A stretch of DNA of 56,242 nt, filler included, from Squatina squatina (lineage: Eukaryota): assembly GCA_031763465.1 (NCBI GenBank). It is 3 parts of 3 records of this genome, joined end to end, with 100 filler letters (N's around TTAATTAATTAA, not from the genome) between each part and the next. Parts side by side here need not be neighbours in the genome. Positions count along the whole stretch, not along the records: positions 42,194 to 56,242 come from JARFOE010000163.1; 2 more parts are not named here. One strand, 5' to 3'. The notes under the pieces are model-generated. The model searched no databases. It saw only the letters and a program-made list of their open reading frames with translations, and had not been told where the DNA came from. Of this stretch, positions 27,795-56,072 are shown piece by piece (positions within the stretch are counted from its first letter, which is position 1; each line of letters opens with the position of its first letter). A program made the translations under genes and the position numbers.

Positions 27795-28100
27795 AAAATA
27801 GGAAGAGGAGGAGGCCATTCATTCCCTCGAGCCCGTTCCACCATTCAGGGAGATCACGGCTGATCTGTAACTCAACTCCATTCACCTGCCTTGGCTCCCA
27901 TATCCTTTCACGCCCTTGTCCATCAAAAATCTATCCATCTCAGATTTAAAGTTATCAATTGAGCTGTAATCTACCGCTTTGTGTGGGAGAGAGTTCCACA
28001 TGTCTACCATCCTTTGAGTGAAGAAGTGTTTCCTAACTTCTCTCCTGAATGCCCTGGCTCTGATTTCAATGTTATGTCCCCTTGTCCTAGATACCCCCAC
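27795..28100 (-). mobile_element. CR1-clade LINE 3' end
   Basis: SRTRGHNIEIRARAFRREVRKHFFTQRMVDMWNSLP..NFKSEMDRFL plus tail. Confidence 0.9.
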
Positions 28101-44190: not shown

Positions 44191-44346
44191 TAGTTCATCC
44201 CCCTTGAAATTAATTGAGGAAAAATCAGTAGCAAACCAATGGGAGGNNNNNNNNNNNNNNNNNNNNNNNNNNNNNNNNNNNNNNNNNNNNNNNNNNNNNN
44301 NNNNNNNNNNNNNNNNNNNNNNNNNNNNNNNNNNNNNNNNNNNNNN

Positions 44347-45282
44347 ACTCCACAGCACCCCTTTTATGACTTTCGACCTCTGACCGATGAACTTCAATTT
44401 GTGGCACTAAATGTGATTTCCAGCTGTTGGGCTCTTTAAGATCAGAGTATTTATCTGCAGCTGGTTCAGGGATTTCCACCCAAGCTGCTTTATACTGAAC
44501 ACATTTCTTCTCTGTTGCAGCCTGTCCCTCCTCCTCTCCACTGGCTCTCCCTATCCTTGTTCCTTCCCATTCCTCAGTGGTCGCTGCCACCTCATGCTCA
44601 TCAAAGCTCACTTCCTGAACTGCTTCTTGCTTTTTAAATGAATCGCGCCGTTCTGTCCAATTTAACTTTCTCATTACGACTATATCTCGATCTCTCTCAT
44701 GTCTCTCCACTGTCCGTTCTCTTAGCCTTTGAGTTCCTGCGTGAACAGGGCATACATTCTCTCCCAAGCCCTGCCTGTCAGGTAAAGCTTGGACCTCACC
44801 TGCTGTACCCAGACTTTGAAGATCTTTCTGCAAAGCTTCACTTATTGCTTCACTTGGAGACATTTCTGGATGTTTCCTTGAGCCACACGATTTCTTATCA
44901 GCAAGATATGCAGCTGACAGTTTCTCCGCTGATTGCACGCGTTTCAGCAGAGGTGATCGTGGCGGTTCTCCAATGCGTGGTCGGACAGAATGTCTAACAA
45001 TGGTTGGAGGGGACAGCGTCTTGCCAGGGTATGACTGGGCATTCTTTGAGTAGCATGACAAAGGAGAGGGAGAGCGGTGTGGTGAGGGCGGTTGGGGTGT
45101 TGGTGATGGTGTGCAGGCCAGAGGGGAGGGTGGGATGCTGCTGGTCGATTTCCGACGCCCAGCCTTGTAACGTTGGCTATTGGGCTTAGGGGCCAATCCA
45201 TGCAGAGTACAGGGCCTGATATTCCCAGCTGGTGAGCCTGGAGCGCTGGGTCCAGGGGAGGTGCTCTGAGGTGAGTTAGTCC
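44347..45282 (-). CDS. MAST3: MAST3 last coding exon (C-terminal Ser/Pro-rich tail), truncated by gap before the stop codon
   Basis: Acceptor tttcttacag|GG on minus strand. Reads [33 protein letters not shown]...[24 protein letters not shown]...[17 protein letters not shown]...[19 protein letters not shown]...VPQIEV, matching the MAST3 C-terminus as I recall it. Confidence 0.92.
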
Positions 45283-45531
45283 CTGTAAGAAACAGAGAGG
45301 TTAGTTTCACTAGAGACCGTGATAAAGCTAATGTTTTATGCCTGTTAAATATAAAATTGGAACAGTAACTGGATCTCTACTGATGTCAAATCAGCTCAAT
45401 GACTCCTGTTAACTAGCTCGTACCCAGAAAGGAAAAGAGACATACATTTAACCCTGATAAACTATAACACAGTTTGTTCCACAATCCATCATAAGACAAG
45501 TATATGAAGCACAGAATAAATTGATTGTCAC

Positions 45532-45710
45532 CTGACTGGAGCTCAGGAGCAGGACTTCGACAGGGAGTTACTGGTCCCGGAGACAGGCTGTGAGTGGGTG
45601 ATCCTAGAACACTTTCACTGGACGATAGGGACTGGTGCAAGGCAGAGAAGCTTTTGCTTGTGTGTAATGCTGGTGCCTGCTTGGAAATCTTCTTGAAGTG
45701 TGATCGCTTT
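45532..45710 (-). CDS. MAST3: MAST3 penultimate coding exon (post-PDZ region), 179 bp
   Basis: ccatttacag|A-KRSHFKKISKQAPALHTSKSFSALHQSLSSSESVLGSPTHSLSPGPVTPCRSPAPELQS-G|gt. Phase 1 end joins the next exon in frame. PCRSPAP favours MAST3 over MAST1/2/4. Confidence 0.9.
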
Positions 45711-46084
45711 CTGTAAATGGCAGAAGTAACATTTGGTCAAATTATGCTTCTCATGTAAGAGACAAAATGAGGTACAGCGCAGTCCTGCAAATGCTGAGCA
45801 ACTGCAGCAGAGGAAGGGGGTTTCCAAAGGCAGCACTCGGTGCTGGGGTCATTTGCCATGAGTTGCTTCTGATAGCTGTTGTGAACATTCACACCACATT
45901 GTAGTTTGGTAAAGAATCAGGTTTAAATTGCCTGATGATGTCATTGCCCTTTCCCATAAAACATTTCTGCAAAACATGGATGTTTTCCATATTTTACTCC
46001 GGGTTTTTGATTCCTGGGAATTAGCCAGAAAAAAAGCAGCAACCTTGGACAAAAAATGGAAGAAGAGGCAGGTAGTCTGGCACG

Positions 46085-46187
46085 ATCGAGCTCGCCTGAC
46101 ACTGAGAGTGAGTAATGGACACAGCGCCATCGATCGATCGAGCTCCTGTGACACTGAGAGTCAGTAATGGACACAGCGCCATCGATC
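46085..46187. repeat. ~53-bp tandem repeat in MAST3 intron, cut by gap
   Basis: Two copies of GATCGAGCTC..GACACTGAGAGT..AGTAATGGACACAGCGCCATCGATC. Confidence 0.8.
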
Positions 46188-46337
46188 NNNNNNNNNNNNN
46201 NNNNNNNNNNNNNNNNNNNNNNNNNNNNNNNNNNNNNNNNNNNNNNNNNNNNNNNNNNNNNNNNNNNNNNNNNNNNNNNNNNNNNNNCGACCCGCGGCCC
46301 GAGCCTCACTCGCATATGGGGCGACCTTTGACCGTCA

Positions 46338-46812
<475 letters not shown>

Positions 46813-46813
46813 C

Positions 46814-46946
46814 CTGGTTATCAATAAACTCCCGGGTGTCCTTCTCGATGTGATCCTCGTACAGGTTGGTCGCCAGGTTCATGAGTCCGATCCTGGACAG
46901 CCCGAAGTCGGTCAGTTTGATGTGACCCATCGAGGTGATCAATAGG
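46814..46946 (-). CDS. MAST3: MAST3 kinase-domain exon (DFG/activation loop), 133 bp
   Basis: gttgcag|[45 protein letters not shown]|gtaggg; splices in phase 0 to the VCGTPEY exon. Confidence 0.95.
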
Positions 46947-47203
46947 CTGCAACCACAGTGTATGATCATCACTTACTGACCTCGTCATACTTCACAACAT
47001 CAACTCAGTGCACACAACACATTCACCCAATGGGGCATCGCCATCACCCCGTATATGGGGGAGGGGGTCAGGGCTCCGGTAGAGGGGGGATTTGNNNNNN
47101 NNNNNNNNNNNNNNNNNNNNNNNNNNNNNNNNNNNNNNNNNNNNNNNNNNNNNNNNNNNNNNNNNNNNNNNNNNNNNNNNNNNNNNNNNNNNNNTATCAG
47201 GTA

Positions 47204-47332
47204 GGGTTGGACTGGGCTGTATCGGGTTGGGTTGGACTGGGCTGTATCGGGTTGGGTTGGACTGGGCTGTATCGGGTTGGGTTGGACTGGACTGTGTCGG
47301 GTTGGGTTGGACTGGACTGTCTCGGGTTGGGG
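47204..47332. repeat. 25-bp minisatellite abutting a MAST3 donor site
   Basis: About five GGGTTGGACTGGGCTGTATCGGGTT units. Confidence 0.9.
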
Positions 47333-47338
47333 ACTTAC

Positions 47339-47548
47339 ATCATGCAGCATCTTCTCCAGATTTTCCTGTAACTCGAGGAAGTAGCGGGAGGTGATGAGGG
47401 CTTCATGTGACTTCTCCAGGCAGTCCCGCGCCAGTTCGATGATCTGATGGTGGATGAACCCAAGCACTCCATCCGCGAGTGGCAAAATGCTGTCGGGCGA
47501 GAAGCTGCTGACAATATCCTGAAGTCGTTCCTCCATCTGAGCTGTGGC
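47339..47548 (-). CDS. MAST3: MAST3 DUF1908 (pre-kinase domain) exon, 210 bp
   Basis: ggtgatag|[70 protein letters not shown]|gtaagt; 70 whole codons. Confidence 0.95.
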
Positions 47549-48015: not shown

Positions 48016-48831
48016 TGATTGGCAGTCCTGAGCTGGACTGAAAAGCAGCTGTTGATGTATTTGTTAGCACATTCTAATGACCTACATATTTTTATCCTTC
48101 CAATGCAATTCAGGCTTTCGGTTCACTGAGGCCATGTCAGCAAGAAATAGCAGCAACCAACAACCTGCCTTCATCACATGTGGTTTGTTTCACTATTTCA
48201 ATGCTTACAACATTAACACTTTTTATTTCAAGGATATTAAAAACTCTGGGTTATGAACATTTCCTGCTGTGGAAGAATTGGACCAATTGGAATCAAAACA
48301 CCTGGCAAACACCTTCTGGAAAATCTTCAGACAGAGAACGTTATTACATGTCTTGATATGTGCATTGGCCCGGATATTCCCCTCTGATCACTGAACCAGC
48401 TCCTCACTCACTCGCCCCCTCAGCTTCCTGCACTCTGTCTGTATCGCCGTCTTTCTCTGATGTTCCATATGTGATGTGTGGTTTCCGTAGATCATCACTC
48501 AAGGTGCTGAGCTTAGCACGGCATCTCATTCAAGGAAAGACACGTCAAGAGATTTTTATCGCAAAACCCCCCCCTCTGCTATTTGGCAAGAATGGGGCAG
48601 AGTTTGACAGCAATTAGTGAGTTAGCTAGTTAGGATCAGGGTGAATGGGGCAGAGGTTGGCAGCATTGGATTAGGCTGGGGATAAGGTTAGGGTCTGGCT
48701 TCACATCAGTCACGTTCAGTAAGTAGTATCAAAGGGAGTTTTCTGCAACGTGACTCAGGTGGAACAGTGCTGTACGTTGCCGCGAGATCACTCACTTCAT
48801 CAGCTCCAGGAGCTGCACCAAGGCTGAAGAA

Positions 48832-49824: not shown

Positions 49825-50505
49825 CGCACCACAATCCGCTCAGACACCCTCTCCCTCGTTGCCTTTGGTGGCACTCCATACACCGACAATGACCGGACAG
49901 TCAGCCACAAAGTTTTTGTTCTTGCAGATGGGAATGTGCGTCAGTTCACGGAGAGGACAGAGATGGAGGTCGGGTGCAGTCACGCCTGCGTCGCTGTCTT
50001 GGACAACTTTGTGTATGTGGTGGGCGGCCAGCACCTGCTGTACAGGAGTGGCGAAGGGGCAGTCAGTCGGTGTTTCCGCTACGACCCCCACCTCAATCAC
50101 TGGCTGCGGATTCGGGCCATGCAGGAGGCTCGCATTCAGTTCCAGCTGGACGTGCTGCAGGGGATGCTGTTCGCCACTGGAGGCCGTAATCGGTCTGGGA
50201 GCCTCTTCACAGTCGAGCGTTACTCGCCACGACAGAATGAATGGACAAACGTGTGTTTCCTGAATCGTCGGACCTGGGGACACGCGGGCACATCCAGTGG
50301 GGGGAAGCTCTACATTTCTGGAGGCTACGGCATCACCATCGAGGATAAGAAATCTCTTCAATGCTACAGTCCCGAAACTGACCAGTGGGAATTGAAAACC
50401 CCGATGAATGAGCCACGGGTCCTTCACTCGATGGTCGGGGCCAATGAGAGGATTTACGCACTGGGTGGCCGAATGGACCACGTTGACCACTGCTTCGATG
50501 TCCTG
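49825..50505 (+). CDS. KLHL26: Kelch-like protein 26, kelch-repeat part of the large exon (both ends cut by gaps)
   Basis: 227 open codons: SLVAFGGTPYTDNDR...EMEVGCSHACVAVLDNFVYVVGGQHLLYRSGEGAV...RRTWGHAG...LYISGGYG...EPRVLHSMVG...YALGGRMDHVDHCFDVL; GG/Y/W kelch pattern and KLHL26-specific motifs. Confidence 0.93.
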
Positions 50506-52649: not shown

Positions 52650-52716
52650 CCGTACAGGCTGACGCTGCATGCGTGCTGACGTACGGTGAAGGAGTCGATT
52701 CAGGAAAATGGCGGCG
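52650..52716 (+). promoter_or_regulatory. CRTC1 proximal promoter/5'UTR, CpG-rich
   Basis: CRE half-sites TGACG at 52660 and TGACGTA at 52677; GCATGCG (NRF1-like) between them; YY1-type AAAATGGCGGC overlapping the ATG. Confidence 0.55.
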
Positions 52717-52833
52717 TCGAACAACCCGCGGAAATTCAGCGAGAAGATCGCGCTCCACACCCAGAAACAGGCCGAGGAGACGGCGGCTTTCGAGGAGGTG
52801 ATGAAGGACCTGAGCATCACCCGGGCGGCCAGG
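52708..52833 (+). CDS. CRTC1: CRTC1 exon 1 (CREB-binding TORC_N domain), 126 bp
   Basis: [42 protein letters not shown]|gtgagt in CpG-rich context. Confidence 0.96.
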
Positions 52834-52898: not shown

Positions 52899-53020
52899 GC
52901 NNNNNNNNNNNNNNNNNNNNNNNNNNNNNNNNNNNNNNNNNNNNNNNNNNNNNNNNNNNNNNNNNNNNNNNNNNNNNNNNNNNNNNNNNNNNNNNNNNNN
53001 TCACCCTGTTTGTGTTGCAG

Positions 53021-53158
53021 ACTCCATTCCAGTCTTCTGCGTTGGACACGAGTAGATCAACGAGGCATCATGGCTTGGTCGACCGGGTCTACAGGGACAG
53101 AACCCGGCTGGGCTCACCACACCGCCGTGCCATTCCTGTTGACAAACATGGGCGTCAG
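53021..53158 (+). CDS. CRTC1: CRTC1 exon 3, 138 bp (exon 2 absent, presumably in gap 52901-53000)
   Basis: tgtgttgcag|[46 protein letters not shown]|atatcctt. Confidence 0.93.
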
Positions 53159-54299
53159 ATATCCTTCCTCTGTCAGTGTGGTGTGGATGCTGAAATGTGG
53201 TCCAGAGCATGAAGCATAGAGGAAAAAGACCTGCGGTGAGGATCTTTCACTGAGACTGCCAGGTAAAGCCTCACAAGCAGGGTTAGAAAAGTCACGTTGC
53301 TTCGATGTGTTGGGGTCTACTCCTGAAAACCCCTTTGACAGATGGTGCCCGGCCTCTGAGCTGGTCTGAGACTTTGTCTTCCAGCAGGGAGTGTTTTCAA
53401 GGGAAGGACTCTCTCTGATTCCTGACCAACATTCTGCCCTCAAACAAACGCTAAGTGGTTGTGCACCTCAGTATCAGCATGCACTCATTTCAATGTGTTT
53501 TGCTGTATCAAGCTCTTGATATGTGCTGTATAATTTGAAGGGTTATTGGCAAAGTCTTGTATTATAAATGTACGGTATTGACTTGTGTACACAAAATTGA
53601 TGTCATGAAATCAATCGAATAATTATTGACTTGACAGCAACTTACATTTATATAGCGCCTTTAACATATCGAGCATCAGACTTGCCTTATGTTCCAGATG
53701 AGAAGTAGGGTGGGAGGAGGCACGTGTGAAGCAACACCACCAGCATGGACCAGTTGGGCTGAATGGCCTTTTTCCGTGCTGTCATTTTTATGTAATTCCA
53801 GGAGCTTGGATCTTTCATTTCACCATTGCGTCATAATGTTTTTCAGGGTTTCACGCAAGTGCGACAAAAGTGACCCTCGCACTTTCCCTCTTTTCTTCCC
53901 ATGTATGCATTCGAGTTTCTGCAATTGTACTCTGATCCCAGCCAGCCAAATTTCTGCTCTTGGCATGGCTACAGCTGGTGTCTACATTACAGGAGGCTCA
54001 GGTGTGCTTTGGCATNNNNNNNNNNNNNNNNNNNNNNNNNNNNNNNNNNNNNNNNNNNNNNNNNNNNNNNNNNNNNNNNNNNNNNNNNNNNNNNNNNNNN
54101 NNNNNNNNNNNNNNNNNNNNNNNNNNNNNNNNNNNNNNNNNNNNNNNNNNNNNNNNNNNNNNNNNNNNNNNNNNNNNNNNNNNNNNNNNNNNNNNNNNGG
54201 AGAAGTGGAGGTGGGGGTGCAGTGATGTTGGTGTCCAATGAATTGAATTCATGGTGACACTGAATGCCATGTCTTTCGATCTTCCTTGTGTACAGTTGC

Positions 54300-54460
54300 A
54301 GGGAGTTGTGGGCTATCTGGGACAGAGGGGTCGAGAGAGCTGATGAAGATTTGGATCTGTTTATCATGAGTATACATGTGGAAGCTCAGTCTGTGCCTGT
54401 GGATGATGTACTTTGAGCAGTTGAGGGAACGAGGATAGATCCTTGCTGGGCCCTGGATCC
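54300..54460 (-). mobile_element. Degenerate L2-like reverse transcriptase fragment
   Basis: QGSIL-like segment then RLSFHMYTHDKQIQI (degenerate FHMYADDTQL). Confidence 0.5.
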
Positions 54461-55709
54461 TAGTTTGGCGACATTCCACAACTGGACAAGGCCATGAGTA
54501 GAGGTGCAGCAAGAGGGTGCAGCACATCTGCCAAGTGCTGCACCCCCTCGAGAGATGGTGGAGAGCCTGCAGTTGCCCTGGGATGCACGGTGAACACTGA
54601 TGCTGAGCCTTGCATTGTAAAGCGACGGAACACTTTTTTCCTAAAGTTTGCTTCCTTTTTTTTGCAGAAGACCATTTCCTGTCAACACTGAAGCATAAAG
54701 TAAACATTTACCAACATGACCTGCAGGACAATCCGACAGTGACCACTAAGGTGTGGATGGGGGTGGGGTGTCAGGGCACCTGTCATTACAGTTTGATGCA
54801 ATGGCTGGTGATGCTGAGGGGCAAGCGCAGTGCTCGATGTGGTGTCTGCTGTGTTTAGCCATGGAAGTGGGGTGCGTTAGAGGAGTGATTTTCTAACTGC
54901 CTGTCTAGAGGATCCAGTGATGATACCGTCTTCTCATGGGCACCGATCCTAACTTCTGAAAGATGGTGTCAGCCAAAGGAACAAAGTAGTGATTGCAAAA
55001 ATGTGTGGTGTGTGTGTGTGTATATCTTCATATAATGTATTACAATCTTGGGTTTCGCTCCATCCTGGTTGAACATCTCATGCTGCTCATTTAGTCCTCC
55101 AAGTTGAAGCTCTCAGCTAGGTGGCACTATGGCGCCAGTATTTCCTTATTCCCTCTTGCTGGAGAGGACCATGTCCTCTTCTCGGCTGTGTCAGGCCTGC
55201 CCATTACTTCTGGCTACTATTTGTCCCTCTTCTTCCCATTTCTAGCTTCTGCTTACTTTGCTGCCCACAGATCGTTCCAGGGAAATTTGGAGTCTCGGGC
55301 CACCCACTTCCCATACCCCAGCCAGGCAGCTCCCGCTGTCCCTATCCTCCTCACACACCACAGCTTCCGCTTCCCGCCCCATTGGGATTGAGAGCCTAGG
55401 TCTGCTCACTTGTGTTGATGCTGCCCGCCCCATGCTCCTTTCAGCCGTAGGTTCTCCCCTGCCACAGAATACAGGGCCACGAGCTTCTGTTCTTCCACCC
55501 AGCCCACCATCATCCTTCAGTCATCTTCCTGCTTGTTCTGGCCTCGAGCTGTTCTCCTGAGATCATGTCCTCCTCCTCGCTCTAGAGACATCTCGCTCAA
55601 TCTGTCCTCTTGAATTGGTTTCCCAGCATATAGCTGAAAGACCAGATTGGATATTTTCAAATACTTAAAGTAAATATACAATGAAAATATGTTAATTAAC
55701 TCTTGCATA

Positions 55710-55880
55710 GTTTTGGATGAGCTGTGGAATAGTTGAGACTAGAGGTAACAAAGGGATGGATGAGGGTTTCAGCAGCCGAAGTAGGGGTAGGGACGGAGTT
55801 GGGTGGCGTTACCAAGGTGGAAGTAGACTGTCTTGGTGAGGGGGAGGATATGGGGTCAGAAATTCAGTTCCTGGTCAAAG
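55710..55880 (-). mobile_element. L2 fragment
   Basis: CTAGAGGTAACAAAGGGATGGATGAGGGTTTCAGCAGC shared with 38095 and 39900 copies. Confidence 0.7.
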
Positions 55881-56010
55881 GGTTCTTACTGCAGTACGTA
55901 TTGCTCCACAGGATAGGAGCTCTGTGTAAAAATATTTAATTTTCTGCACAGTTTAACAGTTTGTTGCAGAATCCATTCTGTTCTCTGAAGTTTCCTTGAC
56001 TCCACAGCAC

Positions 56011-56072
56011 GCAGACAGCTGTCCCTATGGTTCGATCTATCTGTCGCCCCCACCTGACACCAGCTGGAGAAG
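56011..56072 (+). CDS. CRTC1: CRTC1 exon 4, 62 bp
   Basis: cagcac|[22 protein letters not shown]|gtgagg; in frame with exon 3 and leads into the conserved WRRTNSDS SIK/AMPK site. Confidence 0.92.

Follow-up and report, generated by a model that had tools for sequence, protein, structure and literature searches.

The CRTC1 locus of Squatina squatina

The window, by which we mean the whole stretch of 56,242 nucleotides that was analysed, carries exons 1, 3 and 4 of a CRTC gene on its plus strand (Table 1). A search with exon 3 retrieved 1808 relatives, the top matches after one snake entry being CRTC1-like proteins of sharks, rays and chimaera, with 89-98% identity. Exon 3 shares 98% identity with a shark CRTC1 (P0010), compared with 66% for a CRTC2-like protein (P0127) and 70% for a CRTC3 (P0241). 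On these identities CRTC1 is its nearest match within the family, and the gene is assigned to CRTC1 of cartilaginous fish.

The TORC_N domain is located in exon 1, and the gene model is incomplete in the fragmented contigs. Exon 2 itself is absent from the window, with an exon-2-like piece on the small contig C137458 of the same genome, and the exon numbering used here therefore rests on homology. The third part of the stretch maps to contig C163 without a change of offset. The next 50 kb of this contig, mostly gaps, hold two later exons only; the others lie on small contigs or are missing in gaps. Many runs of 100 N occur across the window, often near exon edges. Those of C163 belong to the assembly itself, and the missing exons thus sit on small contigs. 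The open frame that contains exon 4 has just 39 aa, short enough to drop the exon from ORF lists regardless of the splice sites.

Two further candidate coding regions were observed upstream of CRTC1. A Kelch-repeat coding frame at 49825-50505 (+) is likely to be KLHL26, which adjoins CRTC1 in mammals. The start of one database entry (P0347) nearly matches the end of this frame and continues as CRTC1 sequence, which points to the same Kelch-CRTC1 gene order in another genome. Exon-like pieces at 44225-47548 (-) look, from their translations, like a gene for an AGC kinase of the MAST family.

Table 1. Features of the CRTC1 locus in the window and minor-spliceosome snRNA copies elsewhere in the assembly.
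Feature	Position	Strand	Details
CRTC1 coding exon 1	52708..52833	+	42 aa; TORC_N (CREB-binding start; PF12884, E 2.6e-20); then GTGAGT donor
100-N run where exon 2 should be	52901..53000		Present in contig C163 too
CRTC1 exon 3	53021..53158	+	138 nt, 46 aa; AG acceptor before; ends CAG (Gln), phase 0
AT-AC intron, very likely minor (intron 3 by homology)	53159..56010	+	2852 nt including 183 N
U12-type 5' splice site ATATCCTTCC	53159..53168	+	Read from the sequence
183-N run within the intron	54016..54198		N's of assembly contig C163
Interspersed repeat piece in the intron	55725..55879	+	At least 39 other copies, 77-82% identity
U12-type branch box TTTCCTTGAC, predicted branch A at 55999	55991..56000	+	Complementary to the genome's own U12
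AC 3' splice site	56009..56010	+	11 nt past branch A55999; read from the sequence
CRTC1 exon 4	56011..56072	+	62 nt; then GTGAGG donor
U11 copy	L013:562-696		
Sole U6atac-like match	L014:2-121 (contig C636205)	-	Departs from the Rfam consensus in the first 17 positions

Splice signals between exons 3 and 4

The intervening sequence, read directly on the plus strand, starts with ATATCCTT, contains the branch box TTTCCTTGAC and terminates in AC. The donor agrees with the consensus RTATCCTT at 53159-53166, that is, at positions +1 to +8 (consensus as given in PMC3291851), and the branch box agrees with TCCTTRAC. U12-type AT-AC introns in general, as described in PMC3291851, have RTATCCTT, TCCTTAAC and a terminal AC or AG; all three elements and their order are shared by the shark intron, with no difference of substance. 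The sequence-only reading had placed the intron at these coordinates, with CAG ending exon 3, a U12-type donor, a branch point about 11 nt from the 3' end, a terminal AC and exon 4 directly after it, and each of these elements holds.

On both strands of the whole window, ATATCCTT occurs six times (5.7e-5 per position) and TCCTTRAC once, the single occurrence being the branch box of the CRTC1 intron. Under an independent-base model, the chance of finding all three elements (donor, branch box and AC) where protein homology requires them is approximately 3e-10. Other matches to RTATCCTT in the window lie at 27900 and 36620 (+) and at 48237, 41997, 39399 and 4296 (-). None of these six has a TCCTTRAC partner in the window, and they are therefore probably chance or repeat-borne.

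The intron length is approximate, with the 183-N run, also present in contig C163, lying inside it. The run is unlikely to hide an exon, given that homologous proteins pass from exon 3 to exon 4 with nothing in between. A processed or duplicate copy of the exon-3 end was likewise rejected, since an 18-mer from it matches the assembly only once. The interspersed repeat fragment sits approximately 100 nt before the branch box.

Conservation of the protein junction

Removal of 53159-56010 joins exons 3 and 4 in phase 0 and restores the conserved protein. The expected junction, with Gln followed by A(D/E)SCPY, is present in all 27 of the shark, ray and chimaera CRTC1 proteins retrieved, and a later search added 71 tetrapod entries, all of which have Gln followed by (V/I)DSCPYG; both sets of entries are annotation models. 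Among the best 120 homologs, a pattern match finds the plain junction in 85, and another has it apart from one substituted residue upstream; a further 30 continue as IS(F/L/W) past the Gln, and four UniRef bird entries are four residues shorter. When the ATATCCTT donor is left unused, the shark genome's own frame gives ISF, the translation of unspliced ATATCCT. The run-on models are therefore indirect evidence, at the level of annotated proteins, for the same donor in birds, snake, turtle, frog, trout and pipid frog.

Two generalizations had accompanied the sequence-only reading. That such introns are missed by GT-AG gene models is true of the run-on and shortened models (30 and four of 120, respectively) but not of cartilaginous fishes, where 27 of 27 CRTC1 models splice correctly. 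That AT-AC introns are very rare is true among all introns, yet they make up approximately 22-24% of the minor introns of mouse and human (PMC6717393).

Comparison with human and mouse introns and with paralogs

Minor introns in CRTC1, CRTC2 and CRTC3 are listed for both human and mouse in MIDB, all with ATATCCTT donors (PMC6717393), in agreement with the sequence-only reading, in which mammalian CRTC genes have a minor intron. The MIDB donor of human and mouse CRTC1 is identical over the first eight bases of the donor at 53159, and its context in both species is CAG followed by ATATCCTTT (PMC6717393). The human intron is at chr19:18745961-18747052 (ENST00000338797) and that of mouse Crtc1 at chr8:70405321-70406077 (PMC6717393); both are classed as minor in Table S6 of PMC11347168. 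In these two species, expression of CRTC1 peaks in cortex or cerebrum (PMC6717393). The shark intron has in common with them the gene, the CAG-ATATCCTT context and a U12-type branch box. It differs in length, being approximately 2.85 kb compared with 1092 nt in human CRTC1 and 757 nt in mouse, and in the branch box, where the 5' side of the shark TTTCCTTGAC matches U12 more nearly perfectly than that of the human GCCCCCTTAACT, but the shark box has G for the first A. A mammal-like CRTC1 entry (P0323) continues as ISF at the corresponding Gln. The donor context and the read-through proteins (amniote, frog and teleost) suggest, indirectly, that the shark intron occupies the same position and phase as that of human CRTC1. 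The human and mouse CRTC2 and CRTC3 introns share the ATATCCTT donor and belong to paralogs of the shark gene; for CRTC2, the last exon codon CAC in MIDB fits the His before the junction in the mouse protein.

That CRTC1, CRTC2 and CRTC3 form a catalogued minor-intron family is already known. The CRTC genes are described in PMC6865273 as a three-gene family with one inferred minor-intron gain, the gene being dated to Bilateria. Among the sources consulted, CRTC and minor introns are discussed together in the main text of that paper only: CRTC is not mentioned in the main texts of PMC3291851 and PMC7367187, and the supplement of PMC10639083 has no CRTC1 or shark entry. The intron is unreported in sharks in these sources, though subscription papers or the online MIDB and IAOD may list it.

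The same genome contains two paralogs with comparable signals. A CRTC2-like gene (L012 on contig C337889, identified by best matches) has a gap-free intron of 641 nt at the corresponding position, in which CAG is followed by ATATCCTTTT, the branch box is TTCCTTGAC and AC lies 13 nt past the branch A. A third exon 4 (L028 on contig C542458), closest to shark and ray CRTC3, is preceded by TCCTTAAC and by AC 9 nt past the branch A; the donor side of this CRTC3-like intron was not found in the contigs of the genome, leaving the acceptor side only. AT-AC signals at one position in all three paralogs of one cartilaginous-fish genome (in the third on the acceptor side only) provide a data point on the age of the intron. 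Such a pattern is consistent with the one gain put forward in PMC6865273; the intron probably arose a single time, ahead of the duplications that gave rise to CRTC1, CRTC2 and CRTC3.

Minor-spliceosome snRNAs and proposed splicing mechanism

Searches with Rfam models gave hits in the genome for U12 (144.7 bits), U11 (114.4 bits) and a U6atac-like sequence (93.6 bits), all above the Rfam cut-offs. The U12 has GTAAGGA at nucleotides 18-24; this stretch, which pairs with the branch box according to PMC3201867, is intact. The predicted pairing of U12 with the branch box of the CRTC1 intron comprises nine pairs, one of them G-U, with A55999 bulged, and the 5' end of U11 is complementary to donor positions +3 to +8. 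The U11 copy has U after GGG where the Rfam consensus has C, a change that could add a pair with the donor A at +3. The U6atac-like copy lacks, at its 5' end, the consensus sequence through which U6atac pairs with the donor; it may be a pseudogene, with the working gene missed. U4atac was not found among 51 candidates scored; with the assembly split into 1.15 million contigs, this does not imply its absence. All four minor snRNAs are present in Callorhinchus milii (Table S7 of PMC11347168).

The splice signals and frame, the conserved junction, the intron of the CRTC2-like paralog and the U11/U12 complementarity make a CRTC1 AT-AC intron with full U12-type signals the best reading of 53159-56010. 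In this reading its removal is very likely the work of the minor spliceosome, and it is very likely orthologous to the minor intron of human and mouse CRTC1. We place the probability of this reading at roughly 0.95. The U12-type AT-AC intron in CRTC1 that the sequence-only reading had proposed thus has support from its splice signals and protein junction as well as from the paralogs and the snRNAs.

Following established minor-spliceosome biology, the donor and branch box would be recognized together by the U11/U12 particle, with U11 pairing with donor positions +3 to +8 and U12 forming its nine pairs with TTTCCTTG(A)C around the bulged A55999. U6atac would then replace U11 at the donor, A55999 would act as the branch, AC 56010 would serve as the acceptor and the two exons would be joined in phase 0. 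Were the intron retained instead, the first in-frame stop would be at 53210..53212 (+), 17 codons into it. This stop precedes the exons for TORC_M (residues 148-295 of P0010), for Ser151, the SIK/14-3-3 site, and for TORC_C, and the retained mRNA would likely be directed to nonsense-mediated decay.

Alternative splice sites and spliceosome assignment

Splice-site pairs were enumerated with donors between -30 and +59 nt of the AT donor and acceptors between -40 and +30 nt of the AC acceptor. There are 45 in-frame, stop-free pairs near the ends; the 20 that were listed include 12 GT-AG pairs, four GC-AG pairs (donors at 53129, 53152, 53189 and 53207) and three from the AT donor. Two AGs flank AC 56010, one ending 3 nt upstream (56007) and the other 4 nt downstream (56014). 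Splicing by the major spliceosome at nearby GT-AG sites, mainly GT 53154 (GGC/GTCAGA) with AG 56014, would keep the frame at a cost of three residues and would leave the AT-AC pair unused or a minor path. The 16 GT-AG and GC-AG pairs among those listed are all in frame and free of stops, a junction four residues shorter occurs in four UniRef bird entries, and the chimaera ortholog is entered as 'major_hybrid' in a table of PMC11347168. However, none of the 16 keeps the conserved length, and among the pairs listed AT 53159 with AC 56010 is the only one that does (shift 0). The junction that is three residues shorter is found in none of 475 proteins, the RefSeq protein of C. milii shows the junction in full and the paralogs carry the same AT-AC signals, so that predominant GT-AG use is very unlikely. 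More improbable still is use of the U12-type donor with a neighbouring main acceptor, either AG 56007 (one added His) or AC 56016 (two residues fewer). Both are in frame, and minor introns often have cryptic 3' sites nearby, with such events in human CRTC2 (PMC6717393). Either junction is nevertheless absent from the same 475 proteins, compared with 174 that have the plain junction. The branch A of U12-type introns usually lies roughly 10-15 nt from the 3' end, and the spacing of merely 8 nt between A55999 and AG 56007 is shorter than this, which counts against that site. The GT-AG, GC-AG, AT-AG and second AT-AC junctions listed were set aside on the ground of protein conservation.

The ends could also be as read here and the intron nevertheless be removed by the major spliceosome, as in the U2-type AT-AC introns that are known to exist (PMC6717393). 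The response data in PMC11347168 bear on this from both sides. The human CRTC1 intron is non-responsive in seven of nine datasets, including the three with U12, U4atac and U6atac morpholinos, but it responds in the other two, both of CENATAC depletion (24 h and 48 h); the mouse intron is responsive in one of six U11 datasets and not in the other five. The full U12 consensus ATATCCTT at the donor and a branch box complementary to the genome's own U12 argue against U2-type removal, and we consider it the least probable of the alternatives. Removal by the minor spliceosome at AT 53159 and AC 56010 is therefore preferred.

The chimaera entry and the age of the intron

In Table S8 of PMC11347168, the intron orthologous to that of human CRTC1 is called 'major_hybrid' rather than minor in Callorhinchus milii. 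The cell is in column ENSG00000105662 (291 of 675) and row Callorhinchus_milii, and it is the sole such call in that row. The C. milii RefSeq CRTC1 protein has the plain full junction and shifted models exist in birds, so the call is probably an annotation slip or a shifted gene model, and possibly a real conversion. The best 120 of 3086 matches include no Ensembl-type C. milii model that could account for the call. More generally, 34 of the 120 best homologs are mis-joined or run on at the CRTC intron, which constitutes an annotation hazard, and such mis-joined models may explain the published entry. It is also conceivable, though very unlikely, that both spliceosomes use the junction in cartilaginous fishes, the AT-AC form being accompanied by an isoform lacking three residues that is spliced at the in-frame GT (5 nt upstream) and AG (4 nt downstream). 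If so, this dual-use junction would be a natural intermediate of minor-to-major conversion and the 'major_hybrid' call would be real.

Run-on models also give hints of the depth of the AT-AC intron outside the jawed vertebrates. Entry P0300 (UniRef100_A0A8C4QZ44), whose best match of six proteins tested is P0249 of Myxine glutinosa (353 bits versus 200 for the next), continues as ISF at the corresponding Gln. This one hagfish-like gene model hints that the AT-type U12 donor is older than jawed vertebrates and present in cyclostomes. By eye, no IS(F/L) run-on was seen in the invertebrate-like rows of an alignment of 107 of 150 representatives, which does not imply absence. Two teleost-like CRTC2 entries (P0144 and P0361) continue as VSF, a run-on that would fit a GT-type U12 donor and a switch of subtype from AT-AC to GT-AG in teleost CRTC2.
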